A stretch of 64,000 bases of DNA from Psammoneis japonica (Eukaryota), in assembly GCA_008632985.1 (NCBI GenBank), contig QPGO01000162.1:62001-126000 (forward strand), in the 5' to 3' direction. The position numbers were made by a program, and so were the translations under genes. Under the pieces are notes generated by a model. That model searched no databases. It saw only the letters and a list, made by a program, of their open reading frames with translations, and was not told the DNA's origin. Positions 35,086-64,000 of the stretch are shown piece by piece (the first letter of the stretch is position 1; each line of letters begins with the position of its first letter).

Positions 35086-36600
35086 TTGACGGCTCTGTTG
35101 AATGAAGCTAACAATCCTGCTCAGCATCCTGATGCCCCCAAAGCTGTCCAAACCATTGCATTTCTAACAGGAACAATCAACCTCCATAAAATCCATGCAG
35201 TGGGTTTGCTGGCCCAAGTTCTTGTGAATGAACCATTTGTGTTTGATTCTCCATCTCCAGAAAAAGATGATGCTCCTCCTTCTGTTGAGTCAGCTGACAA
35301 ACTTGTTGATGTCTTGGTCAACAAATTGGCTGCCAGGGAAATCCCCAATGACAATGCTTCACATGCTGTCTATGGTCTTTGTGCTGCAGGAGCACACCAG
35401 ATCAAGTGGAATCCTGTGGAAGCTGAGTGTCAGCTGTGTTTGGTCTGTGATGGTGAACATCAATTGGCAGATTTTCTCATCTTGAACAATGCTGCTTTCC
35501 TTCATTCACATGTGATCCGACTCTGCCAATTCTGTCCAACATGAGTGGTGCCCTCAGGATGGTGCTGTTGCATTGCAAATGAACAACCAATCAGATTTTC
35601 CTCCAGGCCATTGCAGACTTCAGACATGCAATGGGCGCCACTTGACTCTTCCCAACCCAAAACCACCAAATGATTGAGGGGTGACTGCAAAAGAGGGTCA
35701 ACTTGATTCATCACCACCCACTGATGCTCCTCCTTCTCGTCTTTCTTTTGCTGATGATGAGATCCTTCAGGGCACCTCTGGCACTCCTGATGTGAACACC
35801 CTTGCTGTTGATGATCCTTCTCTTCCAGATGAGGGCAGGGCACAAGATGGCACAGAAGAGCTGATGAGAACTGCTCCACCTGCTTTGCCTGAAGACATTG
35901 GACAACTTGATTTTGAACATCTTGATGCAGATGACTTGCTGCATCTTCAGCCACTGAATTCCATCCACATTTCACCCACACTCCTGCCATCAGTGTCTCT
36001 TGCTCCTTTTGATTCTTTGGACACTCTGACTGCACTGATCAACCACACATTGAGCAATGCATCTGTGTCTGCCTTGCTCTCAGATTGACACAGGAGCTTG
36101 GGTCTGTTGTGCTGGCCAGTTGAATCTCATCCACAGCTGTCAACCTTTTGATGATGAACATCCATGCCCTGTCAAGATGTCACCTGCAAAACAAAAAGAT
36201 CAGATGTGACTCCACATGGTTGCAGATTTGCACAAGTTCCAGCTGACAATGATCTTGGGTGCACATGGGTCTCAGCATTCTGCCATCCAATGCTTTGTCA
36301 TGCTGCCTTGATCAGCAATGAATGGAGTGTGGGAAGACCTTGGTGATGTTGCTTGTGATCTTCTCACATGTGCACACTGGGAAGTTCCCCACAAATGGTG
36401 TGGGCAGTGAGACAACTGGTGATGTTGTGGCAGAGACTTTGAGTCACTCGCTGAGAAGGAGAGGAGGAGCAGTTGTTGGAATTTCACAGCTTGCCATGAC
36501 TGGCACACTCCCACCAACCCCAAACTCACTGTGTGGCCCACAAACACACCACCCCCAATGCCAGCCCATCAACTGCTGTTCATGCCATGTTGACTGGGTG
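35086..36600 (+). mobile_element. Copia (CoDi-like) LTR retrotransposon relic: gag zinc knuckle and aspartic protease
   Basis: Degenerate knuckle CLVCDGEHQLADF...FLHSHVIRLCQF, followed by protease QIDTGAW at 36081-36101 and HSCQPFDDEHPCPVKM. Confidence 0.7.
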
Positions 36601-36764
36601 CAGAGGCTAAAAGGTGAGCACAAGACCCTCAACTCAGAGCTGTGAATGCAAATTTGCCATGTTGTCAACAATCATCAGTGTGTCTTGCACTGCAACATTG
36701 TCTGTCCTGCAAAAACTGCTTCGAACCCTGGTGCACCAACACACTCCTTTCCATGAGCCATCAA

Positions 36765-37800
36765 TTAATTGGCCTCATGCGTGTCAAGCACAGGAGGACA
36801 ACACTTGGAAACCTTGCCATCCAACACCACTTCAACTGCTCTGCTGATCCCTGCAGCCCCCACATCATCATCCAACTCCGTTGTTGAATGACCACTGTCA
36901 GGGCAATCCTTTTTCACATGCCCAACCTTGTTGCATTTCCAGCATTTGATCTGCTTCTTCTTGTTCTGTGTGAAGCTTGTGCCCTCAGGCTTCTTTTTGG
37001 CTCCATGCATGTCCAACACCTGCAGTGGTGCCTCCTCAGCCAAATTGGGGCAATTGTCAACCCCCAGTGCAAACTGCCAATGCAGGTCTTTCAAGACACA
37101 CCACTGTTCTTTGGTGCCCTCCATTGGCATTGCCACCAACAACTTGTTTCTTTCTTTGTTCTGGGTGTCATCAGCACCCTTGCTAAATCCATCTTCTTTC
37201 TTGGTGATTGCTTCTGAAATGATCCTGCCATGGGTCATTTCTGCTGTCTCCACAATGCTCATGAACCACTGCAGCAATCTTGAAGTGCCTCTCCTTTGTC
37301 TTGATGTGTGAGTGCCAAATGCTTCCATGCCTTGACTGCCTGGACATGCAAGCATGTCTTCTCATTTGCATTGAACAAGATTGACTTGAGAACTTCCAGC
37401 AGCACTGCCACATCCCACTCCTGTGTGATTCTCACAAACTCTGTCACTCCTTCAACCTTGTGATGGATGACCTTTTCACACTGTCCCATTGTCATGTTAA
37501 ACACCTTTGCCTTCTGCATCTTGTGGATCATCTTTTTTGGCTTGCTCTCCCACCTCAGAGGCACCAGCACCTGCATCTCTGGCCTGAACATTCTTCTGAC
37601 ATGCTCGCTGATCTTTTTTGTGGTCTCAGTGCAACCACCTGCCTGTTGTCCCAACCCGGCAGTGGCGCCACACACCCACTCCTTTAACTTCTTTGTGCTT
37701 CCACACTCAGCTGTGTCCTGTGCACATTTTCTGGAGTGATGTGGGAGCATCATGGCTCGCCAAAACAACAGCTGTGCATTTGGTCTTACCAACCCTGACA
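36765..37800 (-). mobile_element. Second Copia-like gag relic, opposite orientation
   Basis: CCHC knuckle CWKCNKVGHVKKDC, plus QFALGVDNCP and GQCEKVIHHKVE...DVAVLLEVLKSI. Confidence 0.75.
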
Positions 37801-40747
37801 CAACCTTGCTGCAGCCTCTTTCAGCAGACCCTCAACAGCTTCTTGGCAGCAAGGTCCTCCAGAGATCATTTCTTTGCTGTTGTCCACCCAGCTTGTTTGC
37901 CGCAATCCATGGGGACATGAGATGTGCCTTTGGATTCCTGATGACTTCTCAGCCTGCATTCTTGGATTCCTGATGACTTCTCAGCTTTTTCCTTTGAACA
38001 ACACTGCTCCTTTGAGAGTGTTGTGTCATGATTTTTTAGCTTCTGTGTTGGAGTTTCATGGCTTGCTGGTCAGAGCACATTTGGTCTCACCAACCCCAAA
38101 CTTGCCATGTGGCTCACAATCTCAGCCCACACCCCCAAAGCCATTGACCACTGTTGCTGCATCAGCTGGGTGCACAAGCAAAGGCTTTTTTTTGCCTGGT
38201 GTGGGCAGCAGGTTTTGATTGACTCAACTCAAGCAAAGCAAGAGTCAGCACATGAAAGCAACCCCTGCACTCAAAGACAAGGAACAACATGTGAGACAAA
38301 GTGCAACATGCAGACAAAGAGCTTGTGCAGAAACAGAGTGTCCAGCCAGCCACAGTGCCAGTGGCTGCACATGCAGGAAGCAGAGCAAGAAGCCGGGGGG
38401 GGGGGGGGGGGGCATTGTGCGCAAGAGCCCACACAAAGAGGAGGGTGGCACACACTGTGCCTTGAAGAACCAGGTGGAAGGGGTCAACAAAATGCTAAAA
38501 AGGGAAAATTGTGAGACTGTTTTTTGCACCAAAAGCAATGAGAGATGCTCTGCAGCACAACCCAGCAAGAGAGAGCTCTTTCCCCTCCTCCCGGCCTGGC
38601 CAGCCAAGAACCTCCTGGGTCATCTGTGGCCAAGCAGCACCCCCCAAAGTGTTTTCAGCACTCCTTTGGGGTGTGCACCAGTTGCTTCTGAGAGCTGCCT
38701 AACAAAGAAACTGTTTCAACACTTGTGGTCACAATGTCTCCAAACACACAAAATGTTCACAGGGCAGCATCTGAGGTGGCCAGAAATGATCTCCAGCAAG
38801 CACCACCAGGCCCCAAGAAGGTGGGCAGCAGCAGAAGCAGGGCAAGAAAACAAAAGCTTGCTTTTGTGAAGATGGCATTGGCAAAGTCAAGAAGCCACTC
38901 AGAGAGAAGCAAGTCAACTTTGTGCAACCTTGGTGCTTGGTGCCAGGTGGTGGCTCAAGAGTGCACATCATCATGCACAGCCCCTTCTTGCCAGGCACCA
39001 AGAGCAGCAGAGCCACAAGAGCTCAGCCTCTTGCACTGCCAACTCAGAGCACTTTGTGGCAGAGTTGAAAAGCAAAATGCTTTGATCAAAGTGTGTGCAG
39101 AATGTCTGCAGGAACGATGTGGGTGAGACAAGCTTGAAGCAGGCAAGACAACCTTGCTGTGAGAGACACAATGAGGTGGGGGGGGGGGGGGTGATTAAAA
39201 TGACAAAAGGGCAATGTGTGATGACTCTAAAATTGCTCCATTCATGGACAAGCAACAAATTTGCCTTTGACCTTGTTGTGTCCTCCGCCTCATGTGTGCA
39301 GTGTGAAAGTTGTGCCGCACATGAGGTGCAAGGAATTGCTTGAAGGACAACCTTCCACATCAGTGCTGTCATTGTGTGTGGTGTGCCATGCTGTTTGATG
39401 ACCTGCCAAAGCAAAAAATGCAAAGTTGTCATGTTGTTCACAATGGACCTTTTTCATTTCAAGATTTTTGCCTGGGTGCAAACAGGCTGCAAGTGTCAAG
39501 TGGAAATTGCTTGTTTGGGCGGGCAGAATTTTTGAAACACACACATGCATCACAACGACAAGACTGGAAGCAGCCATGCCATGAAGACCAACCACCACCC
39601 TTCCTGCAAAATGTGTTGCATGTGACGCATCTTTGCATTTTACAAAAGAGCACGTGTTGTGGATTTCAGCTTTGTTGTGTCTCATGCAGTCAAAACTGGC
39701 AACAACTCTTGGCATCACTGATGGTGCATTGGACTTGGCATCATTCAGCAAGTCTGCACAAGAGGTGACAGTGATTTCATTGACCCAGGAGTCTGTCAAA
39801 ATCAGGAACACTGTGCCGTTCATGGCTGCTCTTGGTCGTGTCCTCATTTGACAGACAGAAAGAAAAGGGGCAATGCAGCCATGTGATTCTTGGATCTTGG
39901 ACCCAAGTTCCAAGTTTGTGCCATGATGCAATGAAGGCAAACTGTGCCTGCTGCTTGCTGCTGTGAGAATCCAATCAGTGAGGGCATTGGGTGCTCTCAT
40001 TTTGGCTTGTTTTGTCTTCCTCTTGGATGAATCTAGCTGGATGCACTGCAATGTGTCCCTTGGCACCTGCACCGTCACTGCCGGCATTGTGGCAAAGATG
40101 GAAGATTCAGGATTGCAAAGAGTGTTTGGCAGATGGAGAGAAATTTGTGCATCCATTTCTGCCTCCAAAGTGCAATTGGCAAGAGTGCATCAACAAAGTG
40201 AGGAACTTTTTTGCATCTTACAAAAGAATGAGTGCTGTCAATTTCAGCTCCATTGGGTCTAGCGCAGAACTGGCAGAAGCTCTTGGTGTCATGGGATGAG
40301 ATGGCACATCCTTGCATGAGAAAAGAACAAATGGGCAATCAGCACCTGATCAAGAATCCTGTTTTGTGAAGTGCCAGTTGCGCTGTTCACATCACTGCCA
40401 TGGTCTCTTCTCAGGATTGTGGCAATCATGTCATGCATGTTCTCAACAAGGTTCTTGCGTCAACTTTGAAGTTGCAACATCTGTTCATGTCCACAACAAT
40501 TCACAATGCTGATGACAGCAAAACAGTCACGTGGCACTGGCAGTGACCATCGACACACAACAAACTCATCCCCACAATCCACAGATCAAACAACTGATTT
40601 CAGACATCCAGCTTTTCCACCCAGCCTTGACTGGACCCACAGTCAACCTTGTGAGCTTCACACAGACAAGCCTTCTTGCCATGCATTGCCAATGTCTTGG
40701 CACAAAAACACCTGAAGGATCATGCTTGGCAGACAACATTGTTTGTG

Positions 40748-40912
40748 ACTCAAGACAGTCCTCAAGGGTTGTGCCAACTTTTGTCACCACAAAACAGCAA
40801 TTTGCAACTCAAGACAGTCCCCAAGAGTTGCACCCACTTCTGTCACCACAAAACAGTGATTTACAACTCAAGAAAGTCCCCAAGAGTTGTGCCAACTTTT
40901 GTCACTGCAAAA
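40748..40912. repeat. 59-bp tandem repeat, ~2.8 copies
   Basis: ACTCAAGA(C/A)AGTCC starts at 40748, 40807 and 40866. Confidence 0.9.
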
Positions 40913-43900
40913 TGGTGCTCATCATCGGTGTCTTTGTTGTGTGAATGAGTCAACGCAACAAGAGCTTGTCACCAATCTGTGGCTGCTCCAAGCAAGTGTC
41001 AATCATGATTTTTTACCATGAGCCCACACCCTCCATCTTAAACACCTTGCAGTCTACAAAATGACCACATGGAGAATCTCCAGCACATGACAAGTCACAC
41101 CATCATTGCAGAGAAGCCAGAGCACCACACTTGACATTGTCATCCACCAACCCACCAAACAACAGCATGTTTGACTCTTTGGCTTAAACAAATTGAACTC
41201 CACCATTCTTTGGTGGCAAAGCACCATGGGCTGCACAATGTCTTTGTTGTTGTCAGAAAGAGTCAATTCTGAATCCAACAAAATCTCCATTTCTTTTGCC
41301 ATCAGCATTTCTTTGGATGAATGCAAGAGAGACAGATCCATCCAAGGATCTTGTTCCAATCCTTGAAAGCTTCCAATTCAGTCTTGTGATTGATTGGCAC
41401 ATGTGCTTCAATCCAACTTGGACATGGACTGCTGCAAGTCTGCAGCGTTGACACATCCCCCCACAGATGGCCCTCCTTGCATTGGATGTGGCAACCAAGT
41501 CACAGACTCTTCAACCATTGCTGGCAGGTGCGTGCAGAGCCCACACATGCAAAACGCAAGCCATCAGTGTGTGCTGCAGCATTTGATGCATTCCATCCAA
41601 CACACCACACTCCAGAGGCAAGCTCACATCTGCCAAAAATGGCTTCAGCAAAATGCCGCTGTGATGCATGGCTGCTTTGGCAATCTGTCTTCTCTTTGCT
41701 TTTTTTTGATGATGCATTTCTGCATTCTGAAGATGAAATCAACCTTTTGTTGAAGTCAGAATGCTCCCTTTCCTGAATCTTTTAGAAGCCAGATTCATGA
41801 CAAGCTCAAAGCAAGCCATGACACATGCTGGATTGTCTCTGCCCCCAAAGCAAAGGCATCTGTGCTGTGCTTCTTGCACATGCTCCACTCCCCCCCTGTC
41901 TTTCTCAGAGGAACCCCACAAAAAACCAGCTTGATGTCCCACTTGAGAATCAAACACAAAAATGCCACAGACTCACAAAACTTCTGTGCTGAAGGAGCAA
42001 ATTCCCAGTGCAGAATTGCTCACGGTGCCTTGCGGTGCCGAACATTTGAACACATGCCGGGTTTGCAGGCTTTGGAGTTTTTTTTGTGTCTCATCCTCCA
42101 AGGAGCTGCTTCAGCCAGTGAGCAGCCCTTTGATTCCCATTGTGAGCAATGGTGCCTGCCTGTGTGACAGTGTGTTGCATGGCATGAAAAAAACCATGGG
42201 CTGAATGATGCTGTTGCTCTGATCTCTGATGATGGCACAGCAAAAAAAATTGAGATGAAACTCAGCCCAAATTCTGCTTGACACACAGTCTGTCTGTTGA
42301 ACTTAAAATGATGAAGAAAGGTCAATTGTCAGCACATCTAACACTGCAACATTGTCTGTCTGTCCTGCAAAAACTGCCTCCAACCCCAATGTTCTAACAG
42401 TGCCAAAGCAATCACTGTGGTGAGTTGATTCCAAGCAAAGTTGGCAGAGGACAGAAGGCAGGGTGGCAAAGCAAGGGGGTGGGTTGAAGCTTGGGTTGGG
42501 AGCAGAAAGCAAGAAAGGAAGAGCTGAAGAGGAAGTGGTGGAAAAAGAAACCAAGACCACCCAAGTGGCCATTTGTCAGTGAAAGAAGAGAGCACCCACC
42601 ATCATCAAGGGACTGGATGACATGGGAGCCATTGGCAACAGAGGCAGAGGGGCCAAGAAACTTTGATCTCATGCTCAAGTGGTGTGCCTCTGCCAACACT
42701 GGAGCACCAGAGAGGGCAGGCAGAGACCAGGAGGAGGGCAAGCAGGAGCTTTTGGTGCAGTGACATCAAAGGCAATGCAAAAACCAAAGGAGGGGGCAGA
42801 GAGGGAAGCAGGGGGGGGCAATGCTGACACCAGCAGGATGGCAAAAGGGGGAGTGGTTCAGCAGCAGATTTGTGGATTCAAGAAGGTGGACATCGTGGGG
42901 CAAATGGCGCAGCTTGGCAACCCCCCCCCCCCCCCCCCAGGAGAGTTGTGTGTGTGGTGACCAAGATGGCATCACAAGCACTGCTGGAAAGTTCAGCCTT
43001 GTGACTGTGTTGGCAAGCAAAGGCATGATCAACACAGGCATCAAGGGTGACATGGCCACAGGGGCACAGAGCACCAATGAGCAGGTGCGGAGGAAGGGTG
43101 GGGAGGCAGAGCTTGTGCTGAGCAGCGGCAGCACATGCGTTGGAGGCAAGAAGGTGGGGGATGACAGAGAAGCTTCAAGAAAGAAAGTGGAGTGGGATGC
43201 TGGCAAGAGGAGAGAGGCAGGAGCAGCTTGGACATCAGAAGGTGTGTCAGCAAGCGTGGAGGTGGCAATGCACTGCAGATGGGCATGGCAGAGGCAGTGT
43301 GCCAAGCCAGGAATTGCTTCTCGATTTAGAAAAGAGCAGCCAGAGAAGAGAAGCAGGTGAAGAATTGGAGGCAAGAGCAGCTGCCAAGCAACAAAAGAGG
43401 GTGTGCAAGTGAAGACAAGAGCAAGGGTTGTTCCAGGAAGAAAGAGAATGCCAAGAACAGCACGGGAGATCAGCGGAGGCACCAGACGGCAGCTGAACTC
43501 AGCGCGCAGCTCAAAAAGGAAGGAGCAGAGCAAAGCTGCAAGGAAGAAAGGGATGGCAGTGGTGGCAGGATCTCTGAGGCCAATTCTGCCAGGAGAAAGG
43601 CAATGGTGAGGGAGCAGGCAGGGAGGGGGTCAACATGAGTGGTGGTGTGGCAAAGGAGCAGGAGGGGAGAGAGCAGTGGCAAGAAAGTGCAGAGGAAGGG
43701 GGGTAGTCTGCTGTGTGGTGGTGGCATGGTGAAGGAAGCAGTGGATGAAAGCAACAAGGAAGTCTGTAAAGGAGGATCCAAAGGAAGGGGTTGGGTGGGT
43801 TGTCAGGATCGAATTTGCTGCAGCAGAAGTTAGCACCAAGGAGCAGCAGAGTGCTTGAAAAGTTGGGCCTTTGTCTGCTTTTCGTGCAGGTGGGCAAGGA

Positions 43901-44333
43901 GCTTGTCCACTTCAGAGGAGGATGTGGTGGAGAGAAAGGAGTTGGCAAAGGCACAAGAGCCTGAGGTCAGGCCAAGGAAGCAAACACCAGAGAGTTTTCG
44001 TTGCTTCGAATGATGTTCAAAACGCGACTTTCGAGGTCTGAGGTCCAGAAGATAAAAACCGCCGGAGGTCTAACACTTGTTTGAGAAAATCAGCTACAAG
44101 CAGAAATGTGATAGTGGGGCCACCTAGTAGAGCAATTTTGACTTGTGCCGTCGGGCACTTTCAATGTCGAGCAGCAGATATAATTCGCCACGTGAAATTG
44201 GTAAGTTTTAGGAAAATGGTGCTACGCTCAACAATGCTGTAGCTTCCCACAGACCGCCGGGAATGGCAGCTTCCTTTCTCTACTAGCTAGAGCATTGATT
44301 TGACCCGTGGATTCACAATGACTTGCTACCGAG

Positions 44334-51522: not shown

Positions 51523-52980
51523 TCTCCTTTTATCATGCCAGGCATTTCTACAGAATTATCATCCACTGGATTTCCGCTACGCGATTTTTCTACGTGGCTT
51601 GGTACAAGTGGGTTGAGCGGACAGCTGGCACCGCACAATCAACCGTTACGATAAGAAAACAGCCGTTACGTAACGGATGTCTCTTCCATAAGTGCAACAT
51701 TTTTTCGTTGCGAGGTCGTTTATCAAAAATCACTTGACACATTTCTCCTCACAAAAAGTTAACGAAATTTGGTTCTCATCACAACCGTTCATGAAAATTC
51801 ACACAAAGTGTCTAGATGATGTAGACGATTACACATGTAAAGCAATTCTTCTTGGTCTTCGTTGTCAGAATCACTGTCAGCCGAAGAGTTGTGAAGCTTT
51901 GATTTGAGGTCATCGAGATCACGCCTTTTCTGAACGCAAATAGAGTCGAGACATTCTTTTGTAACGTTCCGCTCTTTAAGCTCCTTCTTCTTTGCTTCAA
52001 TGCTCTTCCCCAACAAACCGGCGTTTGGACAAACCAGCCGAATCAAGATCTTCAGCTCATCTCCCTTCAACGTCTCGCACTCACCATGCTGAGGCGCACT
52101 GGAGCGAAAAGTGCATCAAACTCGTCGAGTGTCATGGCACATGTGCTTGCATGTCACCAGTGTGAATGACGGTTGGATGTGCAGCCGCCCTTTTGTGCAC
52201 ATGTGACAGGTTGTGAGCATCGACTCGCTTGCCTCTGAGGTGCAGCCCAGAGTCTCCTTTTGTCATGCCAGGCATTTCTACAGAATTGTCATCCACTGGA
52301 TTTCCGCTGCGCGATTTTTCTACGTGGCTTGGTGCAAGTGGGTTGAGCGGACAGCTGGCACCGCACAATCAACCGTTGCGACAAGAAAACAGCCGTCACG
52401 TGACGGATGTGTCTTCCACAAGTGCAACATTTTTTCGTTGCGAGGTCGTTTGTCAAAAATCACTTGACACATTTCTCCTCACAAAAAGTCAACGAAATTT
52501 GGTTCTCATCACAACCGTTCATGAAAGTTCGCACAAAGTGTCTGGATGATGTGGACGATTGTACATGCAAAGCAACTCTTCTTGGTCTTCGTTGTCAGAA
52601 TCACTGTCAGCCGAAGAGTTGTGAAGCTTTGATTTGAGGTCATCAAGATCGCGCCTTTTCTGAACGCAAATAGAGTCGAGACACTCTTTTGCAACGTTCC
52701 CCTCTTTAAGCTCCTTCTTCTTTGCTTCAATGCTCTTCCCCAACAAACCGGCGTTTGGACAAACCAGCCAAATCAAGATCTTCAGCTCATCTCCCTTCAA
52801 CATCTCGCACTCACCGCACTGAGGCGCACTGGAGCGAAGTGCATCAAACTCATCGAGTGTCATGGTGTGTGCACTTGCATGTCACCAGTGTGAACAACGG
52901 TTGGATGTGCAGTCGCCCTTTTGTGTGCACATGACAGGTTGTGAGCATCGATTCGCTTGCCTCTGAGGTGCAGCCCAGAG
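51523..52980. repeat. Tandem duplication of a ~730-bp 3' segment of the pogo-like element (51523-52252, 52253-52980); a partial third copy lies at ~53410-53485
   Basis: Direct alignment of the copies; duplicated peptides in the ORF track (KGDELKILI.LVCPNAGLLGKS). Confidence 0.95.
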
Positions 52981-53429
52981 CCCAGAGAACAGTGGTCGCA
53001 GGTTCGACACCTCGAATTCATGCAGAAAAGTTCAGGGCAACGCAGGGGGCAAATGCCTGTAAAACAGCCAAACTAACATGCAGAAAATGTCTGCGCAAGA
53101 GGAGCGCACATGCAAAACATGCCTTCCAACCAGGGTGCGAGAAGCCAACAGGGTATGAGTCACCTGAAGAGTGGCCTTCACAACAACACAAACAACAAAA
53201 CACACACAACTAAAGTGCAAACACAATGTGGAAGCATTCCGACAGGCATGGGAGACACCTCTCCGGCGATTGCACTGACAGAGTTGCAACACACAATGAA
53301 AACATACAAACATGCACACCAGAAACTGACAACCAGAAAACATCTGCCTCTGAATGTACAAACCAATGCACTCCGTGAACATCCGAACATTAGTTTGAAG
53401 GGGGGTGTTGTGGCATGTGCACTTGCATG

Positions 53430-56400
53430 TCACCAGTGTGAACAACGGTTGGATGTGCAGTCGCCCTTTTGTGTGCACATGACATCGAGCGCTTTCGATT
53501 GCTTGGCGATGTCAGCCTTCAGTTTCGTTTGCTCTGCCTCGCCCACCTCGATCATCCTTGTCTTGGTGCGGCGCATGGCAACAATTGCATTCTCACCTCG
53601 TGCTGTCGTGACAATGGCTCCACGTCTCTTCTTTTTGGGCGGTTGCTCGGAAGCACCCGCTGCGCCGGCAACCGCATCCTTTCGCTTGAAACCGGCAAGC
53701 ACGCTCGACATCGTTGCATGCATTGCGACGCTGATGGCGTTCACACCACTGCTGTTCACCTCTGCTTCGAAGCCATCAATCATGGCGACATGTGGTTTCT
53801 CAATCATCTCTTTCAACTGCAAAAAATCCTGAAAAGAAAAGCTCTCACCAACTGTTTTCCCTTGTTGTTGTTGATGCCAGACTTCAAACATTTTGTCACG
53901 CTGTTCCGAAGCTTTCCGTTTTGCAGCCTCGATTGATGCTGTCTGCTCTCTCTGTCTCTGCTGCCTTTTGTGGAGATGCTCTCTTCTGGTTGCAGCAGGA
54001 TCTTTCAGAAATTTTTTGGGGTCGACGCGGCCGCTCTGGGTCACAATGCGCTCAGTCCCATCTTCCAGCACCAGCTTCCAATTCGGACTGGTTTGGAGCA
54101 TGACAACTCCATCAAAGGTTGCACCAGTGGGATCAAAAAATTGCACCTCAACAGCATCAATGAAAGGTCGCACCGAACGCAGCACCGTTGCAGTCCAATC
54201 TCTCGCGTGCTCCTCTTTCGTCTTTTCCGCCGCACAAGGCAGTGACGCCGCATCAGGCAAGCAATGTTGTGCAAGTTGCATGGCCAGCTCTTCTTGTTCA
54301 CTTGTTGGCTCTGGTTTCTCACTCTTGCACTCTGTGCCCTCTCTCCATTTTGCCAACATTGATTTTGCCACTGGCATCGCAACATCCAAGTCGTGAAGCA
54401 GCAGGTCGTCATCGTCGTCGTCGTCGCAGCCCTTGCAGAGAATGTTTCTTGATCTCTCAACAATGGCAACTCGTTTGTCAGGTGGGAGAGGCTCAATTTC
54501 CCACTCTTGTTTTTGTTGCTCTTGTGCTTGTTCCTCCTTTTCTCTTTGTGATTCCAGGGCGAGGTCGTGTGCGGTCCCCATTGTCTCTGGCACTTCCGTC
54601 CACGCCACGCAATCGGGGTTGATTGGCTCAAGTCCGGTTTCCTTCCAGGCACTTGTGCAGACATTGCTTCCTTTGGACAACAGCTCAGCCTTCTCGGCTT
54701 CAAGGTGAGCCTTCCAAGCAGCGAGAAAAACCCAGTTTGTCAACCGCACTCCTTTTGCAAGACCGCTCTCGTGCCTGGCCCTCTTTGCCTCTTCCTCGAT
54801 CTTGACATGCAGGCGTTTGTTGACACCTCGATCATTTGGTTGTGTCCAGATGGATGTGTGAGATGGCAGAAAAAAACAACAGATGTTGTGATCCCAGAAA
54901 TGCTTGAGAGCGGCGTGGCACCAATGCGAGGCATGTCCATCGAGCAGCAGCATCGTGGCGTTCCTCATTCGTTCCTCGTCTGTCGCGCAACTTGTTTTTC
55001 CTTGACCCTTGGGAAGGTTCTTGCAGTGATGAATGGCGAAGTCGAGCATTGCATCTTTTTCCATGCTTCCATTTGTGGTTGTCCGGACATCAAAGCCGCG
55101 CGGGTTGTCGCTGAACTTGGCGTTGGGGTTGGGATTTGCTGGGGTGAGGCCGTCAAGATGCATTTCACCAACAAGCAGTCTCGTCTTCTGGAGCATCAAT
55201 GCGGTTGGAATCATTGGTCTTCTTCTTGGATTTGGAGGCATGCACAAGGAACGGCAGCGGGGCACCTTCAATTTCTTGGCACGGAATTGCGTTGACGCCT
55301 GCGGAGGCGGACGGGGCACAAGGCAAGTGCGTTCAACAATTGTCCAGAGCAAGGCAGTGACAACAAATAAAGTGGCACCCCTTTGCTTGCCATCTGCTCT
55401 AGAAGTGACACACACAGCAAGATGATGCTCATCTTGCCGTCGCCCTCGGGAGTCCTCTGAAAAATGCACAACTTCTTCATGACCTCCTTGAAGACCAGCA
55501 CTTTCTTGCGGCGTTTTGCAGTGTCCATTGCAACTTCATCCATGTTGCATTTTCTAAAAGCCTCAAGCTTCTCAATGCAATCAACATCAATTTTACCTGT
55601 GGCATGGAGATGCTTCACAAAAGACTGCAACTTTGCAAAACATGCATCCCGAACCTCTTTCGTCCCCTGCTCAGCATGAATTGGGTCCAAACTTGAAGCT
55701 GAAGCTGGTTTTGCTGGCTTTGGATGGCGTTGGAGCATGGGGTGTAGACAGGTTCCAGTCCCAGGTGGGACTTTTTGTGACATTTGCCCCGCAGAATTCT
55801 GCGCGCGAGCTCTGCAGTTCGCACTCTGGTCAATGGATGTGTTTGTCTTCGACATGAAAAAAACGGCCAAGTTTGCAGCACATCTGTCCCTGTTGGTGCT
55901 CAAAGTTTTGGACAATGCGCCTGCCCTGCGCCATTCTTAAGACACTCGAGAATGGCACAGAAGAAAAAAACATTAAAAGTTGTTCAATGGACAGCCTGAC
56001 AAATGCACTGTAAAATCACACAAAATTTCGCCAAAATCACGTAGAAATGCACGTGCATGACATACGACGCGATTCAAAAAACTGTCGATGTCACAGTTCA
56101 GTGGTGCGAGGTCCCACCTAGACCTGGAACGCGTCTGCACAAAACAATCAGACACAGATGGTTTTTCACGCTCATCAATGTGCTCATCAGCCAAGTCATT
56201 CACAATGTCAAGAATGGTGTCCTTTGACACTCCACATCCCATCTGACCCAGCCAGCAGCAAACTTCAACAACATGCTGCTCTTCGTCGTCAGCAAGAGCT
56301 CCACTCCCCTTGTGCAAGGCAGTGATTGCCTCCTTTGCCTTCTTGTCTTTTGCTCCAAAATGGTTGCAAGTGGCTTCTTGTGCTTTCTCCACTGAAGCAC

Positions 56401-56700
56401 TTTCTTGATGAAGACGACGAAGTCCACTTTGTCCCCATGCCCGATTCAGGGTGTTGCAACGGGTGCTGTGCTCAGGGTGGACATTCTTGCAGTGATGGCT
56501 CAAAGAAACTCCATTGCCATTTGCATGGAAGTCCACAAGAATGTGAAACTTCAAAGACTTCTCCACACGTGGGCATTTCGTTCCCTTTGCTCTGCCTTTC
56601 GCCTTGGCTTTTTCCAAAGGTTTGAATGCATCCGCCGGTGAAGGAGCAGTGACAGCATCAACACACTGAGGATGAATGCACATGGCGGCAAACACAGATT
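53430..56700 (-). mobile_element. Decayed pogo/Fot1-like DD35D transposase (CENP-B HTH + DDE_1), frameshifted and interrupted by a MITE
   Basis: LADDEEQHVVEVCCWLGQMGCGVSKDTI (HTH), NMDE, and LLLDGHASH...LPSHTSIWTQPND with 35 residues between the last two Asp. Confidence 0.85.
55746..56136. mobile_element. ~390-bp MITE, copy A, inserted in the pogo-like transposase
   Basis: Imperfect TIRs AGACAGGTTCCAGTCCCAGGTGGGAC / GTCCCACCTAGACCTGGAACGCGTCT; homologous to copies B and C. Confidence 0.85.
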
Positions 56701-58615
56701 GCTGTTGTAAGACAAGTCTGCTTTATGTTGTGGGTGTTTTTGAAATTTATGTCGAGCTGATTGTTGCACACGGATCATCACAAAATTCAAACCTCATGTA
56801 AAATCACTGCTGGGATGTGCGTCGACAATGACAGAAAAAAATGGCGCGACAATGCATTGCGCACATGCTGCACATGGTCTCTTGTCATGTCGACTCTTGT
56901 GAATCGAATGGTGCATCAACAGCTCAACAGTGTTGACGATGGGTTTGGAACTAGAGCGCCATGGTCGACGAGACGGGATGACGGTTTTTGCATTTTTTTT
57001 TTCTCGGCGAGAAGTTGAGTGGAGGAGAGATGAGAGATGAGATGGAGGGAAAGATTTTTCTCTCATCTGGAACTCGATGGCAAACTTTACTGTGGCGATT
57101 TGTGCGCAAATGATTGCACACACTAACATGTCACAACATAAGTTGGTGGTGTTCTGATCAGAATTTCAGCACCAGAAAAAATGCGTGCAATTCCACATGA
57201 TCACTTCACACCAAATTGTCACTTCACAGATGGGAATCCCCTGTGGTTGAAGATTGGGTGAGCTTGGATTTTGACAAAATTGGCTTTTCATTGTTTTCTT
57301 TGGAGCCTGCAATTGTTTTTTTTGCGAGGTCCAATGTTTTTTTCAAAAAAGCATTAGATGGTTTTTCTGGAACTCAGACCTCGTGGACCCCTTTTGTTTT
57401 TTCGCGAGGTCCACAAGCAAAAAACCGGTCTGTCCTCTTCTTTTTGGTGTCTTTGTAAAAGTCGATTTTGTTTCCAAAATCGATGGGGTTTTCACTGTGC
57501 AATGCTTCTTGCGTCTTCTGCCATTGTCAATTGACATGTTCTCATGCCTGTGTTCACCAGAGTCACGGTTCTGAACGCCACAACTGGTGTCGCAAGAGGG
57601 GGCTTTTTTTGCTCCAAGAGGACAGACCGGTTGTCAGTGGAATTCTACGTGGAAATGTGCCGAGAAATTTGTGAAGTTTTTTTGCTTGCTTGTGGCCATC
57701 GTCTCTTGCAACGGCAGCATGGCAAGTCCACAACACACACTCGCATCGAATTACATGGGCCCACAAGCTGTGATTGATTGCTGTTTTGCTTTGTTGCTCG
57801 CACTGTGTGTGCAGGTGTTTGTCACTGGTCATCATTCATCATGACACATGGTGCAACTTCTTGTTGTCGTCGAAAACTCAACAAAACGCAGCGCGATGCA
57901 GTGTCAAAAAATGCAAAATGATGAAGATAATTGAGGGTGGGAAATCCCTTGTTTTCGGGGGCATTTTGGAAATTTCACTGGAAAAACGGATAAAATGAGA
58001 CAGCATTTTTTGCGAATGCGTGCGATTCATGGAAAAACGCTCAAACGGCTTGAGTGCAAATTCTGAGCTCACCGTGCAAATTCTGAGCTCACCGTGCAAA
58101 CAACACAACAACAGCTGAAATGCCGTTCGTTGAATGCAATGGAGGTGGGGAGGCCTCCAACTTTCTTCACAAGTTTGTCACCCATGTCAAATGCGATGCA
58201 CCCTGAAAAAAGTTGGAGGCTGCCCCGCCAAGTTTTCGAACGGCATTTCGGCCATTGTCGTGTTGTTTGCACGGTGAGCGCCGAACGCGTTGGGATGTTT
58301 TCTCCACAATTGCATCACAAATGATTAAAAGATTGGTTGTTTTTGATGCTTTTTACAAATGTGTGTCGAAAACACAAGGGGGTTCCCAGCCTTGATGAAC
58401 GAAAATCTCTGTAAAATTTCAGACGGTGCATTTTTTTTAGAAAATGGCAATGTGCCATTTTTGGCCCCCGATTGCGCTGTGATGCAACATTCTTTTGTCC
58501 CGCTGTTTTCACCATGATCTCTGTTGACATTCTAGCTGAAGTTTGCAGGTTGGGTTTGGATGGCAAACAATGGGAAGTTGCTCATGGAGTTGCTTTACAA
58601 AGTTTGCTCTTCCAA

Positions 58616-59020
58616 GAGGACAGACCGGTCGGAAGAGGACAGACCGGTCGGAAGAGGACAGACCGGTTTTTTGCTTGCAATGGTTTTTTTCAAAAAAGCA
58701 TTGGATGTTTTTTATGGAGCTCAGACCTCGTGGACCCCTTTTGTTTTTTCGTGAGGTTTTGTGTTTTTTCAAAAAAGCATTGGATGGTTTTTGTAGACCT
58801 CAGACCTCGTGGACCCCTTTTGTTTTTTCGCGAGGTCTGATGTTTTTTTCAAAAAAGCACGAGATGGTTTTTCTGGACCTCAGACCTCTTGGACCCCTTT
58901 TGTTTTTTTCGAGAGGTCTGATGTTTTTTTTCAAAAAAGCGTTGGATGTTTTTTCTGGACCTCAGACCTCGTGGACCCCTTTTGTTTTTTTGCGAGGTCC
59001 ACACAATGTTTTTTTCAAAA
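58616..59020. repeat. 19-bp repeat x3 (GAGGACAGACCGGTCGGAA) followed by ~78-bp hairpin-containing tandem repeat x4; related unit at 57330-57440
   Basis: Unit reads CAAAAAAGCATTGGATGGTTTTTCTGGACCTCAGACCTCGTGGACCCCTTTTGTTTTTTCGCGAGGTC. Confidence 0.88.
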
Positions 59021-59028
59021 AAACATTG

Positions 59029-59420
59029 GGGCGCGTTCCAGGTCTGGGTGGGACCTCACACTGCTGAACTGTGACATCGACAGTTTTTTGAATCACGTCG
59101 TATGTCGTGCACGTAGATTTCCACATGATTTTTTCGACATTTTGTGTCATTTTATGGCACACTTGTTGAGCGATCCGTCCAACAACTTTTGACATTTTTT
59201 GTTGCAGTGCGATTCTTCAATGTCTTAAGAATCACGCAGGGCAGGCGCATTTGCAAAAACGTCGGGTGGCAAGAGGCACAATTGCACCACAAACTTGGCC
59301 GTTTGTTTGATGTTGAAGACAAATGTGTCCGTCAATTAAATTCTTGTGCTGCAGAGCTTGCACACAGAATTCTGCGGGCCCAATGTCACACGGAGTCCCG
59401 CCCAGGGCTGGAACGCGTCT
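59029..59420. mobile_element. MITE copy B, inverted relative to A and C, inserted in the 78-bp repeat array
   Basis: Ends GCGCGTTCCAGGTCTGGGTGGGAC ... GTCCCGCCCAGGGCTGGAACGCGTC; the host repeat unit resumes at 59421. Confidence 0.85.
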
Positions 59421-59862
59421 TGGATGGTTTTTCTGGACCTCAGACCTCGCCATCCCCTGTCCACCACCTTTGTGCGTTGGGACCCAAGCCTCGTGACTCC
59501 TCCTCGTGAGCAACATCAGAGTGTTCTCGCCCACCCTCGAGGGCTCATCTTTTCTGGGTTTCTTAAACTGGGATGTCACCGTGCGTCACCGTGCAAATGT
59601 CTTGGTGCCACCTGACATCACCCGACCTGTGAGGAGCCATGCGAACCCTCAGAAAACACTCCCTCTTGCAGGTTCAGGGGTGAATCATAACCCGTTGCAC
59701 CTGCATGAGGGTTCATTCCCTCTGGCGCAAATTCTGCACATTTTTGATGCAGCAAAATGCTTTCAGGCAGAATGAGAACTCCACAACAAAAGAGCGAAAT
59801 GCGCAGCTGTCGCAACAACAAACACATCAACTGATCGTCACGACGAGCATCACAGTCAAGCC

Positions 59863-60915
59863 ATGGCATCCATGCAGCACATCATCATGTCTTCTGAACA
59901 CCCACAGCATCGTGAGTTTGCATGGGCATTGGAAGAGTTGAAGAAAGCTTCCAGATCTGGTGGTTCTGGCACAAATGATGGAGCAGGACAGTCGACCCCC
60001 GGTGCCAGCATTGTTTCTGCATCCGGGCCAGCCCCTTCTGCGACTTTGGATGGGGAAGAAGCAGCTCTTTTGGAAATCATGAATCTCTTGATTGATCTCA
60101 CAGAGGATGCAACAGTTGACTTGATCAATGAGGAGAAGGGAGTGACCAAAAAGCCAAAGCTTCCAAAGTTGCTGCAACCCGAGAACGAGAGCTTGTTTCA
60201 TGAATTGCTCTTTGTCATGCAAGCAAAGAAAGCACATCTGCACATCAAGCACATTTCGAAAGATGCGACCACCAAGTCAGTCTGGCAGCCAGTTCTAGAC
60301 GAGTTCTATGATGGACCTGATGGCCCTGCTTGCGGCTGTTTCAAGCCAACTGGTGAGTTTGTGCATCGCACTTTCCAACAAAAATGCTGGGGCATTGTGG
60401 ACACGTTGGCTGGGCACGCTTTAAACAAGGAAGAAGGGCATCACACCCCTTGTGAGATCTCTGCATTGGCCACGTGGAAGGAGCAGAAAGATTTGATGGA
60501 AAAGGACAAAGAATCCAGGTTGGAAGCAATGGCAAGGAAGGAGAAAGTGGCTGCTGCGAATGCTTCAAGCGAAGCCAAACTCAAACTCACACCTCCAAAA
60601 CCATTCAGTGAGAAGTGTCCAGTCCCAAGCATTGCTGTCACTCCCTCTGAGAGACCTGATGGAAAAGACCGTGTGCTGGAATTGGAAAAAACCCAAGAGA
60701 AGGCAGACGAAGTCTTGAGTGACATCAAGGCTTTCCTCCCATCCAGGGAGGAGATTGGAGAACTCAACAAGTGCAAGAAGAGGAAGCTTCAGTTGGACAC
60801 AATGGCGTCTGCAGCAACAATGATCTCGCAGGGCAGGGATGCAAGTCTCGACGTCTCAAGGTTTCAAGAGCATTGCAAGCAGCTGCAAGACGAGCACTTT
60901 AAAGATCAGGCCTGA
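59863..60915 (+). mobile_element. 350-aa TE-associated ORF, possibly the Myb/SANT-like companion gene of a PIF/Harbinger element
   Basis: Long ORF inside the TpA-depleted block with a single Tyr and a coiled-coil C-terminus, convergent with a Harbinger-like fragment. Confidence 0.4.
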
Positions 60916-60966
60916 AAAAGATCAGGCTGTGCTTGGCACAAATCAGGACGCATGTTTCATGTTGCC

Positions 60967-62000
60967 GAGTGCTTTCCAATGGCAGCATTTTTGTTTCCAT
61001 GCCTTGAGCAGATCAGAATTCTCTTTTGCACATCCAAACGCCGCCGCAAAATTGCACGCCAAAAATTCCCAGTGTGTTCTCATGAACTGCCGGCAGGCGT
61101 CACTCCAGAAGCAATGGGAGTTTTGCAACAACAAACAGTGTCAATGCCATCTGCAGAACGAGTGCTTTCCAATGGCAGTGTTTTTGTTTCTATGCCTTGA
61201 GCAGATCAGAATTCTCTTTCATGTGTCCAAACGACACCGCAGTTGCGCACCAAAAATTCCTGGTCCGTTTTCATGAACTGCCGGCAGGCATCACTCCAGA
61301 AGCAATGGGAGTTTTACAACAACAAACAGCGTTAATGACATCTGCAGAACGAGCACTTTCTAATGGCAGCATTTTTGTTTCCATGCCTTGAGCAGATCAG
61401 AATGGTCTTTTGCATGTCCAAACGACACCGCAATTGCGCGCCAAATTCCTGGTGCATTTTCATCAACTGGGCATCACTCCAGAATTGATGGGAGTTTTGC
61501 AACAATGAACAGCGTCAATGACATCTGTGGAACAAGTGCTTTTTAATGGCAGCATTTTTGTCTCCACACCTTGAGCAGATCAGAATGGTCTTTTGCATGT
61601 CCAAACGACACCGCAATTGCGCGCCAAGTCACTGGTGCGTTTTCATCAACTAACTGGGCATCACTCCAGAATCAATGGGAGCTTTGCAATGATGAACAGT
61701 GTCAATGACATCTGCAGAACGAGTGCTTTTTAATGGTGGCATTTTGGTTTCCACACCTTGAGCAGATCAGAATGGTCTTTTGTGTGTCCAAACAACACCG
61801 CAATTGCGCGCCAAATTGCTGGTGCATTTTCATGAACTGGGCGTCACTCCAGAAGCAATGGGAGTTTTGCAACAACAAACAGTGTGAATGCCATCTGCAG
61901 CATGAGTGCTTTCTAATGGTGGCATTTTTGTTTCCATGCCTTGAGCAGATCAGAATTCTCTTTTGCACATCCAAACGAACGCAGTTGCGCGCCAAGTTGC
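60967..62000. repeat. Tandem repeat, ~183-193-bp unit, ~5.5 copies
   Basis: Units start at ~60967, 61160, 61351, 61534, 61721 and 61904, each containing CCTTGAGCAGATCAGAAT. Confidence 0.93.
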
Positions 62001-62012
62001 TAGAGTGCGTTT

Positions 62013-62540
62013 TCAGGCAATGGAAGTGCCAGGAGATCCATGACACAAAGACACAAGAAGATGCATTCTGTGCCAAGCACATGGCACAAGAACCATGTCG
62101 GGCAGCTCAAACAAATCATGCAACACTTGCAGCTCCTCCACATTGAATCGAGTCGTCCATTCGGCACAGTTGTCAGAGTGATCATTGATTTGTCGGTGAT
62201 GTGTGGGAGAAAAGTCAATGAGACGATGCTCCTCCTCATGTGTCATGTCACCAACAGATGAATTTGCATCTGCCCAAATCTGAGCCACATTGTGACATGC
62301 AAAAATGCCACCCAATGCATGCGCAAGAGCAACGCCAAAGGGGTCGTCCGCATTGCTGACTTGCTCTGGATCCAACAAACACCCATTTTCCTGATTGCCA
62401 ACATCATTTGACAATCGACAGATGAACTGCAACATAACTGATGATAAATGGTCCAGAATTCTTTCCTCAGTGCAGATGCTCCTCGTGCCCAATGGCGCCA
62501 GACAGTTGCACAACAGTGTTGTTAATTTGACTGTTGCCAA
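62013..62540 (-). mobile_element. N-terminal fragment of a Harbinger/DDE_Tnp_4-like transposase
   Basis: TRFNVEELQVLHDLFELPD resembles the RF..L..L...L.LP motif. The catalytic region is absent. Confidence 0.45.
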
Positions 62541-62609
62541 TGTTGTGAGAAGAACTGGACAAGAATTGGCTGTTCTGAAAGCTCACAGAAAAGATGCTGA
62601 GAAACCATG

Positions 62610-64000
62610 TAGAAATTGACAGAAAGTGGAATTCGGAAGTCGTCTAGAAGACTCTGGAGATGCAGAGATCTTTCCAGAAAGTGTCATCTTTGACACACTT
62701 GACATCTCGTTGACACTCCTTGACATCCACGAATGAACACACAAATGAAGCATGGATGACCGTGACACTCGGCGCTCGCTTCCCCAATTGAGGCGTTGGA
62801 AAACAGGGTGAAGACGATGGACATTAATCCGCTCAGTGACACCGGGTGAGTGCTGGATGGCAACGGTTCCATTGGCATGAACATGGACAATGCGGAAGGG
62901 ACCATCTTTGGTGTTGAGTTTGCATTGGATGTCTTTGGTCATGGCAAAGACTTGATCGCTGATGTTGCAGTCACAAGTGAGACGTTTTGCATTCTCACGG
63001 AGATTGTTGCGCAAGACAATTCACTTGCAACAGGCATCAATCATTTTCCAACCAGCGAGACAAGCAGCAGAAATGACCATGTCTTGACCAAAAACGACTT
63101 GTCTGGGAGATGACATGAGGGCAGTGTGACAAGCACTGCGCAAGGCCCACACAGCAGATTGCAAAACGTTGTGGATCATGTCCTTGCCACAATCACGTGA
63201 CGGGAGATCCATTGCACGGAGAGAACTGGCAACAACTTGATGGATGCGCTCAACAAAAGCGCTGGCTTGAGGATTCTTGATCGTGGCAGGCTTCAGCTTG
63301 ACTCCACAACTGCAGAGAAGATCTGCAAACTCGGAAGTAAATTCTGGACCATTGTTGTGAACGACAAATTCTGGTCGCAGATGGCGACAGAACCATTCAC
63401 GATCGACAATGAATGAAATGTCGTCGGACGTTTTGGATGCATGAGATGCTCGACACGTTCCAGCCCTGGCCAGGTGGGACTCCGTGTGACATTGGGCCTG
63501 CAGAATTCCACGTGCGAGCTCCACAGTGCAAGAATTTAATTGATGTGTGTGTTTGTCTTAAACATCAAATAAACGGCCAAGTTTGTGGTGCAATTGTGCC
63601 TCTTGCCACTCGACGTTTTTGCAAAAGCACCTGCCCTGCGCAATTCTTAAGACATTGTAGAATCGCGCTGTGACAAAAAATGTCAAAAGTTGTTGGACGG
63701 ATCGCTCAATGAGTGCACCGTAAAATGACACAAAACTTCGCAAAAATCACGTGGAAATCTGTGTGCGCGAACATGCAACGCGATTCAAAAAACCATCGAT
63801 GTCACAGTTCAGCAGCACGAGGTCCCACCTGGACCTGGAACACGTCGCGAGTTCGATCCAGCGGGTGGCAATGTCAATCACAGAAACGGCCTTGATTTTG
63901 CAATCTACGCCATTTTTGTTGGTGCGCGTCCACGGACCGGAAAGATTGACTTGCACTGCTTGCCAAGGTTGGCAAATGGTGTCAGGAAGAGGCAACTTGC
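62610..64000 (-). mobile_element. Ty3/Gypsy retrotransposon relic: integrase, polypurine tract and start of the 3' LTR (TG at 62767); runs off the window end
   Basis: PWQAVQVNLSGPW, IDIATRWIEL, HNNGPEFTSEF, KNPQASAFVERIHQVV and GPFRIVHVHANGTV...ERINVHRLHP, followed by GGGGAAGCGAG and TGTCACGG. Confidence 0.88.
63451..63847. mobile_element. MITE copy C, inserted in the Gypsy integrase
   Basis: Ends CGACACGTTCCAG ... CTGGAACACGTCG. Removing it plus 2 bp restores WIELASHASKTSDD. Confidence 0.88.

Follow-up and report, generated by a model that had tools for sequence, protein, structure and literature searches.

A 64,000-nucleotide stretch of the genome of the diatom Psammoneis japonica (assembly GCA_008632985.1, contig QPGO01000162.1, positions 62,001 to 126,000 of the forward strand; hereafter the window) contains four sharply bounded blocks from which around 90% of TA dinucleotides (TpA) have been lost, and the adjoining host genes are normal. 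The last of these blocks holds the relic of a pogo-like transposase of the DDE_1 family, the longest open reading frame (ORF) of which encodes no tyrosine (Tyr). Host proteins encoded between the blocks are products of ordinary eukaryotic genes, one of which has its best named relatives in diatoms at 50-60% identity. The blocks, the transposase and a tandem duplicate at the edge of the last block are as follows, with dinucleotide frequencies given as observed/expected ratios (o/e) and positions counted from the first letter of the window.

9030..14095, block A: TA o/e 0.07, CG 0.14, CA 1.95, TG 1.85; no recognisable protein domain
19760..22535, block B: TA o/e 0.05, CG o/e 0.13
33450..44050, block C: TA o/e 0.06, CG o/e 0.13; relic of a multi-copy repeat
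51980..64000, block D: TA o/e 0.10, CG 0.69, CA 1.62, TG 1.51; loss of TA only; reaches the end of the window
51523..52252, plus strand, copy 1 of the tandem duplicate (unit of 730/728 bp): left 455 bp with normal TA, right part TA-free
52253..52980, plus strand, copy 2 of the tandem duplicate: TA of copy 1 mostly TG or CA
53430..55469, minus strand, 679-codon Tyr-free ORF with a GTG start: C-terminal two thirds of a pogo-like DDE_1 transposase pseudogene
53448..56581, minus strand, full extent of transposase homology (tblastn of nine homologues, P0001-P0009): at least four frame pieces, at 56581-56099, 55861-55406, 55320-55180 and 55208-53448

Together, the blocks amount to 30464 of the 64000 bases (48% of the window), the remaining 33536 bp being host DNA. 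TA occurs 153 times in the blocks (5.0 per kb) compared with 1390 times in the host DNA (41.4 per kb). In blocks A to C the o/e values of CA and TG are 1.65-1.95, and AA, AT and TT are unaffected in the blocks (0.66-1.33). The guanine plus cytosine (GC) content of the blocks lies near that of the host DNA (0.46-0.55 versus 0.47), and hence a GC profile does not reveal them. Dinucleotide densities shift 10-20-fold at change-points 9030, 14095, 19760, 22535, 33350 and 44050. Edges drawn from CG and from TA agree within 10-290 bp, and since these differences run in no consistent direction they give no sign that the CG-depleted zone is nested in the TA-depleted zone. The footprint is symmetric between strands, CA and TG being almost equally frequent in the ORF (186 versus 188) and in block D (1190 versus 1153). 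TAA and TAG are nearly gone from block D, where there are 0.025-0.027 stops per codon compared with 0.036-0.039 in the host DNA, and for this reason many overlapping long ORFs are found in its other frames. A preprint on Bigelowiella natans (bioRxiv 10.64898/2026.01.13.699255) defines clusters by at least three consecutive 1-kb intervals with TpA o/e of at most 0.43 and CpA+TpG o/e of at least 1.52. Between 52001 and 64000, TA o/e is at most 0.13 in 12 of 12 intervals and mean CA/TG o/e is at least 1.52 in nine of the 12, and blocks A to C show CA/TG o/e of 1.70-2.03. TA has been lost in every frame, on both strands, in non-coding arrays and in the flanking duplicate, which leaves the emphasis on Tyr codons in an earlier note on this DNA unsupported or incomplete. 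The effect is exerted at the level of DNA and is blind to codon and coding status.

The ORF at 53430-55469 had been singled out in the earlier note as a Tyr-free transposase frame rich in cysteine (Cys) and histidine (His), surrounded by host genes with normal Tyr content, and all of this was borne out. Its translation contains no Tyr, 19 Cys (2.8%) and 25 His (3.7%), whereas the 5449 residues of 14 host ORFs in the window include 131 Tyr (2.40%), 1.73% Cys and 1.93% His. At the host rate 16.3 Tyr would be expected in the 679 residues, and the probability of finding none is 6.7e-8. The excess over host composition, seven Cys and 12 His, is similar in size to the missing Tyr. Only two TA dinucleotides are present in the 2040 nt, neither of them inside a Tyr or stop codon, and the kilobase 54001-55000 has none; NTA codons (N, any base) number one versus about 22 expected by host usage. 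The Pfam profile DDE_1 matches residues 120-221 at 28.2 bits (cut-off 22), a partial match covering profile positions 37-127 of 177. With about 0.027 stops per codon on the ORF strand of block D, 701 open codons would arise by chance with a probability of about 5e-9 by our own arithmetic, and the alignment with DDE_1 proteins of 600-1200 amino acids spans 64-82% of the ORF length. Being far longer than chance allows and aligning with DDE_1 proteins over most of its length, the flagged frame is the true ancestral frame and not a chance opening.

The relatives indicate a parent transposase of around 1000 amino acids, of which the ORF covers the C-terminal two thirds, with the N-terminal parts lying in other frames. 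The second and third catalytic motifs (LLLDGH and QPND), invariant in the homologue alignment, are inside the ORF. The motif of the first catalytic aspartate (NMDE) lies upstream in a different frame and reads C-N-M-D-E in the window where homologues have Y-N-M/A-D-E; the three acidic residues are thus not in one intact frame. An intron linking the ORF to the upstream piece was sought (55406 to 55311), but no acceptor-like AG is present in 55312-55345 on the gene strand, and the break is therefore treated as a frameshift. Other genomic copies show 1-base indels relative to the window at 55173, 55313 and 55426. Judged from these pieces and indels, the transposase copy is frame-broken as well and not inactivated by missense alone. 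The proposal that inactivation proceeded by missense saturation rather than by new stop codons thus stands in one respect and fails in another. By our enumeration of codons, no stop can arise from a sense codon when TA is changed to TG or CA, and this accounts for the survival of a long open frame; TAA to TGA is the only TA change that keeps a stop, and CpG loss can make one through CGA to TGA. However, this copy is also frameshifted, in four frame pieces with 1-base indels.

The ORF resembles the pogo/Tigger/Fot1 group in matching DDE_1 above the cut-off and differs from it in being a frame-broken, Tyr-free copy with only 22-38% identity to any relative found. No helix-turn-helix match to Pfam was obtained in the upstream transposase pieces, and no inverted repeats were found in 50500-53500. 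Among 92 six-frame ORFs of block D, DDE_1 is the only Pfam match above cut-off. The absence of Tyr is not a property of the family, which by the earlier note would have refuted the claim: the nine homologues have 12-32 Tyr each (2.0-3.2%), 150 library representatives have a median of 2.3% Tyr, and 24 related metagenome loci show TA o/e of 0.45-0.82.

The direction of the change can be read from the tandem duplicate (728/730 bp), which straddles the left edge of block D. The left part of copy 1 has 20 TA between 51531 and 51977. At these sites copy 2 has TG in ten cases, CA in six and TA in four, so that 16 of the 20 (80%) have changed, compared with differences at only 6 of 370 sites outside pyrimidine-purine (YR) steps. 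CG was changed at five of 38 sites and kept at 33. These counts confirm the suggested polarity, that is, a loss of TA, and the edge itself falls between 51977 and 52086. In the right part, where both copies are depleted, 7 of the 13 differences are adjacent doubles with CA in one copy and TG in the other, as is expected if a single ancestral TA was resolved separately in the two copies. In block D, further paralogue pairs show doubles of this kind at 12 of 40 differences and, in a non-coding array of 190-bp period, at 25 of 87, and there are 12-13 of them in each pair of a ~400-bp segment. An ancestral CG could also yield such doubles, but this is much less likely because CG is mostly retained. 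The change occurred in place, after the copies existed and regardless of coding status. Strand-coordinated runs among the 16 polarised changes number eight by our count versus about 8.5 expected, giving no sign of processive action on a single strand. A host transcript contig ends at 51394, not more than about 600 bp from any point in the left 455 bp of copy 1. The 728-bp unit is itself multi-copy in the genome (depth around 1000, bin 51342-52008) and encloses an ORF of 114 amino acids (52519-52863, minus strand), duplicated near 51789-52133.

The earlier note had further held that Tyr codons (TAY) became TGY or CAY, so that Cys and His residues should align with the Tyr of homologues. This is supported in part. 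At homologue-Tyr positions the window has His in 16.0%, Cys in 6.8% and Tyr in 0% of 945 aligned, non-independent pairs, whereas 24 ordinary relatives have Tyr in 23.6%, His in 5.0% and Cys in 2.2% of 14108 pairs, likewise non-independent. At codon 104 the window has CAT (His), whereas TAT (Tyr) is found in other genomic copies, and the column has Tyr in four of eight homologues. Similarly, five NTG codons of the window (L91, M92, L98, M173 and L201) are NTA in other copies. In the frame pieces upstream of the ORF, the Tyr of the YN(M/A)DE and MGYG motifs is replaced by Cys, and one further Tyr column is occupied by His. However, no Cys is found at the homologue-Tyr pairs within the ORF, and several of the extra His and Cys sit on arginine (Arg) columns (e.g. 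codon 182). Part of the excess of both residues accordingly derives from Arg codons through CpG loss (CGY to CAY or TGY).

Sequencing reads bear on the same changes. The contigs of a DNA run (X1) reach 315 kb at a 31-mer depth of about 60, from which accurate reads can be deduced, and host single-copy depth is about 58. A second run (X2), labelled 'DNA?', was taken as complementary DNA (cDNA), which it probably is, solely because stretches of 82 and 109 nt within a bicarbonate-transporter gene are missing from two of its contigs. Contigs of X1 match 36001-36929, 39197-40604, 40576-41168, 41140-41950 and 42922-44511 with 0-1 differences at a depth of 64-71, the last of them crossing the right edge of block C. 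This match rules out an error of assembly or polishing in block C. Summed contig depth in block D is 300-21000, indicating that its elements are multi-copy. Between the window and other copies, 456 of 565 difference places (81%) are transitions. Of the 40 difference rows listed, beyond which there are 540 more, 25 belong to block D; among these 25, other copies have TA where the window has CA or TG in eight and CG where the window has CA or TG in ten, compared with two rows with CG in the window and CA or TG in the copies, two other transitions and three transversions. A transposon contig of X2 carries six TA-restoring letters, including that of the Tyr at codon 104, and past 55315 three more TA at sites that read CA or TG in the window. 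A less mutated copy of the transposon exists, therefore, and appears to be transcribed.

Lost and surviving TA differ in their flanks (Y, pyrimidine; R, purine). TTAA accounts for 37 of the 153 residual TA versus 43 of the 1390 in host DNA (odds ratio 10, p 3e-18), and its density is about equal in the blocks and the host (1.21 versus 1.28 per kb). YTAR is likewise enriched (85/153 versus 250/1390). RTAY makes up only 6 of the 153 residual TA versus 383 of the 1390 in host DNA and is absent from blocks A to C, and ATAT is not seen among the 153. Of the 13 polarised changes in a mixed context, 10 fall on an A preceding a pyrimidine (a hand count; about p 0.05 one-sided by our arithmetic). Inside the ORF, a purine precedes 16 of the 25 His codons and a pyrimidine 14 of the 19 Cys codons (Fisher p 0.017). 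Assuming a host-like ancestral composition, the gain of TG per kb in block D is 12.9 for TGC, 6.2 for TGT, 3.5 for TGG and 2.8 for TGA. For the A attacked by a putative deaminase, a 5' T is absolute, and a 3' pyrimidine, C above T, is preferred in these four indirect tests. Four weak lines of evidence thus suggest targeting of T-A*-Y (asterisk, the altered base).

Hypermutation in place and aimed at TpA is very likely to have produced these blocks. The best explanation of the locus as a whole, in which the relic of a DDE_1 transposase lies within a repeat-rich domain subjected to such DNA-level hypermutation, is probable. Each TA was changed by one transition, to TG when A became G on one strand or to CA when A became G on the other; both strands were equally affected, and copies were mutated independently after duplication. 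Since the frame was ignored, TAY became Cys or His codons, NTA became NTG or NCA, and TAA and TAG stops vanished. The function may be the inactivation of transposons and repeats. Targeting would be guided by a domain of chromatin or silencing and not by duplication of sequence as such, because copy 1 was spared on the side adjoining a transcribed host gene while its duplicate lost 80% of TA. A second, slower process converts CG to TG or CA and has reached saturation in blocks A to C but has only begun in block D; between the tandem copies, CG loss is about 13% compared with a TA loss of 80%.

The identity of the agent is a more tentative matter. The U33-A34-C35 anticodon loop is the site recognised by TadA/ADAT2 enzymes. 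A TadA/ADAT2-like deaminase could act here by converting adenine to inosine, which is read as G, in the flanks T-A*-Y with C favoured over T; such an enzyme, itself inferred, is a possible agent, although somewhat less likely than not. As described in PMC11472039, TadA edits bacterial mRNA at a U-A-C-G core and recodes Tyr to Cys, the edited A following U/T and preferably preceding C, so that TAC to TGC is typical. The largest gain in block D is likewise that of TGC, and Cys replaces Tyr in two conserved motifs. However, the substrates of those enzymes are single sites in RNA loops, whereas here the change involves chromosomal DNA, nearly every TA and both strands. A wider proposal, and a more doubtful one, is that diatoms possess a defence resembling fungal repeat-induced point mutation (RIP) with opposite chemistry, in which a domain-guided deaminase derived from TadA/ADAT2 would turn nearly all T-A-Y of transposons and satellites into T-G-Y and sites of the TTAA type would escape, with an origin shared with Bigelowiella across stramenopiles, alveolates and Rhizaria (SAR).

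Several observations weigh against one part or another of this account. Domain targeting is deduced from a single edge (51977-52086), which could also have arisen by a more recent insertion or by gene conversion that restored copy 1. The flank statistics presume a host-like tetranucleotide content in the ancestral repeats, the polarised sample is small (10 of 13, about p 0.05 one-sided), and one TTAA site was mutated in copy 2, so that TTAA is not immune. Moreover, every flank test fits equally well a thymine-side target, R-T*-A, on the opposite strand. Under the T-A*-Y rule at least as many changes of Tyr to Cys as of Tyr to His are expected, yet inside the ORF Cys occupies 0 of 117 homologue-Tyr pairs and His is seen. 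CG loss may be an unrelated process, such as the ordinary decay of 5-methylcytosine, and it affects three of the four blocks, whereas the main text of the B. natans preprint makes no mention of CpG. Finally, X1 may comprise the assembly data of the window itself and would then not be fully independent, and the exact-match contigs listed cover block C, with depths and difference rows only for block D.

The alternative that survives best, although unlikely, places the chemistry on thymine. 5-Formyluracil mispairs with G, and 5-hydroxymethyluracil is enriched at TpA in dinoflagellates. The T of TpA would be oxidised by enzymes of the TET/JBP type to 5-hydroxymethyl- or 5-formyl-uracil, and mispairing or mis-repair would then give T to C. 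If 5-methylcytosine were a further substrate of this enzyme class, the losses of TA and CG could be joined. Such a scheme fits the strand-symmetric outcome, the joint loss of TA and CG in three blocks with edges within 10-290 bp, and the sharp, domain-like borders that an epigenetic mark would have, as well as all of the flank tests, which are equally met by R-T*-A on the opposite strand. However, nothing in the analysis shows thymine modification in diatoms, and block D loses TA almost without CG (o/e 0.69; 33 of 38 CG kept), so that the two processes are separable. Moreover, the preference for C after A agrees with the TadA site U-A-C-G with no extra assumption.

A very improbable and largely refuted alternative is that the composition was inherited, the families having been poor in TA and CG before they multiplied, for instance through escape from a nuclease, from methylation or from the TA-targeting insertions of Tc1/mariner/pogo elements. 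Stretches of other copies of the block C family in the reads are indeed also nearly free of TA and CG. Against this, neighbouring paralogues differ by adjacent CA/TG doubles, the 20 TA kept in tandem copy 1 were lost at 16 sites in copy 2, other transposon copies, one of them apparently transcribed, retain TA and Tyr, and 24 relatives elsewhere have normal TA; in addition, non-coding arrays and coding DNA are equally depleted.

No better placed is the supposition of a sequencing or assembly artefact, in which modified bases of heterochromatin would be miscalled so that TA and CG are read as TG or CA. The depletion is limited to repeat blocks, where heavy modification is likely, and the sole DNA run found comes from one sample and is possibly the assembly's own data. 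On the other hand, X1 contigs of up to 315 kb at a 31-mer depth of about 60 need accurate sequencing-by-synthesis reads, which report pairing identity. These contigs match the depleted DNA with 0-1 differences over pieces of 0.6-1.6 kb, including across a block edge, and the changed sites vary among copies.

Slightly less credible again is RNA-level hyper-editing of repeat transcripts by an ADAR-like adenosine-to-inosine enzyme, fixed by reverse transcription and re-insertion. The U-A preference resembles the 5' neighbour preference of ADAR, as noted in the discussion of the B. natans preprint (bioRxiv 10.64898/2026.01.13.699255), and block C contains a Gag-type zinc knuckle. However, the flagged element belongs to the DNA transposons, mutation of tandem neighbours was independent and in place, and the strands are equally affected. 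Moreover, one domain spans different elements, arrays and a flanking duplicate, with a sharp edge within a repeat unit, and there is near-saturation at TA only, AA being untouched. GC-biased gene conversion, or a general AT-to-GC bias in recombining repeats, would give the observed direction of change but is refuted by the dinucleotide specificity, since only TA is affected (AA, AT and TT o/e 0.66-1.33), 16 of 20 TA changed versus 6 of 370 non-YR sites, and block GC of 0.46-0.55 remains near the host value of 0.47.

In-place hypermutation of TpA is a kind of process known from one preprint, on a rhizarian, to which the diatom case would add several features. In Bigelowiella natans, de novo changes of TpA to TpG or CpA are reported at about 1000 times background in integrated viral DNA (Mettrop et al. 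2026, bioRxiv 10.64898/2026.01.13.699255). According to the main text of the preprint, TpA-depleted coding sequences of B. natans are enriched for DDE endonuclease and reverse transcriptase, and an ADAT2-like deaminase is proposed by its authors. As far as that text describes the system, the two cases share the dinucleotide target, the two products and the involvement of both strands, as well as a footprint of TpA depletion with gain of CpA and TpG, clustered over several kb. The victims are selfish or foreign DNA in both, as indicated here by the DDE_1 transposase, the Gag zinc knuckle and multi-copy depth. However, the present host is a diatom (Stramenopila) and not a rhizarian chlorarachniophyte, and the targets are transposon relics, tandem arrays and a flanking duplicate, whereas those in the preprint are giant-virus and virophage inserts. 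TA o/e is 0.05-0.10 here versus 0.45 in their region of nucleocytoplasmic large DNA virus (NCLDV) origin. The flank preference (RTAY lost, TTAA kept) is not reported in the main text of the preprint, which also makes no mention of diatoms or stramenopiles. The rate of about 1000 times background was measured there, whereas here a footprint is read from sequence alone. No report of TpA loss in diatoms was found in the literature, most subscription journals lying outside the search.

Fungal RIP changes C to T at CpA, making TpA and new stop codons, and mutates both copies of a duplication. The blocks resemble its outcome, as a functional analogy, in showing context-specific, DNA-level transition hypermutation of repeats in place, with genes spared and sharp block borders. 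However, where RIP makes TpA and stops, here TpA is destroyed and stop density is lower than in the host; where RIP hits both copies, the left 455 bp of copy 1 are untouched and copy 2 lost 80% of its TA; and the base attacked is A (or T) rather than C. Similarly, the CpG decay of methylated transposons resembles the loss of CG to TG or CA in the repeats (blocks A to C, and partly D) but explains no TA loss, and a CG o/e of 0.13-0.14 with little other divergence is unusually complete.

If the hypermutation reading is true, TpA-directed hypermutation is not confined to one chlorarachniophyte and shapes about half of a 64-kb stretch in diatoms, a major phytoplankton group. The features added by this case are near-saturation, transposon and satellite targets, independent in-place change, sharp edges, erasure of CpG and a flank rule. 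Among these, the sharp edge beside a transcribed gene, the flank rule, the independent in-place change and the slower CpG process are clues that narrow the search for the enzyme and its guidance. If the more doubtful deaminase-defence reading is also true, this would be an ancient SAR-wide form of innate immunity that cripples proteins by missense without making stop codons. There are also consequences for annotation. TA-free domains have near-normal GC and long spurious ORFs, as only TGA stops remain, and for the same reason gene finders working on diatom genomes will predict phantom proteins that lack Tyr and are rich in Cys and His. TA-erased elements will be missed by repeat maskers but would be found by a simple TA o/e scan.

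The remaining features of blocks C and D are the following.

36768..37361, minus strand, zf-CCHC Gag-type zinc knuckle in block C (Pfam E 7e-6, 26.3 bits, cut-off 20.8)
55730..56135, plus strand, ~400-bp segment with two further copies in block D, at 59032-59420 (inverted) and 63433-63846
57313..59029, tandem array of ~80-bp period in block D
60966..62023, tandem array of ~190-bp period in block D, non-coding and also TA-free

Among 145 ORFs scanned in blocks A to C, zf-CCHC is the only Pfam match that indicates a mobile element, and this profile match hints at a retroelement relic in block C. A match to Diedel in the same blocks (21.4 bits versus a cut-off of 21.3) is at threshold and was disregarded. 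The ~400-bp segment overlaps the 5' region of the transposase, and its summed X1 contig depth is 21488 (bin 55344-56000) compared with a single-copy depth of about 58. The segment could represent a satellite or a short, highly abundant derivative similar to a miniature inverted-repeat transposable element (MITE). Block A contains an inverted repeat of ~640 bp (11857-12489 and 12764-13405), the arms of which are 93% identical and differ by three CA/TG doubles and seven changes between CG and CA or TG. Purine-skewed kilobases occur in block B (20001-21000) and block C (43001-44000), with GC skews of 0.37 and 0.41 and AT skews of 0.16 and 0.35, respectively.

In the host DNA, the stretches skipped by the X2 contigs in the bicarbonate-transporter gene (49547-51064 plus upstream ORFs) are 48426-48507 and 50969-51077, probably two introns, and the transcript contig of this gene ends at 51394, where a multi-copy repeat starts. 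An ORF of 645 amino acids (44334-46271, minus strand), beginning about 280 bp from the edge of block C, encodes a PfkB ribokinase-like kinase fused to a Ham1 inosine-triphosphate pyrophosphatase, a fusion for which the name 'Multifunctional fusion protein' is used in many diatoms and from which no link to inosine chemistry is drawn. Between 45534 and 46283, inside a host gene, contigs of X1 and X2 share 10 differences from the window, which probably reflects an allelic haplotype.

One library representative, P0214, is a pogo-like protein of 583 amino acids with one Tyr, 5.7% Cys and 3.9% His; the homologues P0265 and P0205 are also Tyr-poor. At homologue-Tyr positions P0214 has His in 20.7% and Cys in 17.2% of cases (38% together), including Cys in the Y-N-M-D-E motif. 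P0214 is a second Tyr-erased transposase among public sequences, and at least one other copy therefore shows the phenomenon.

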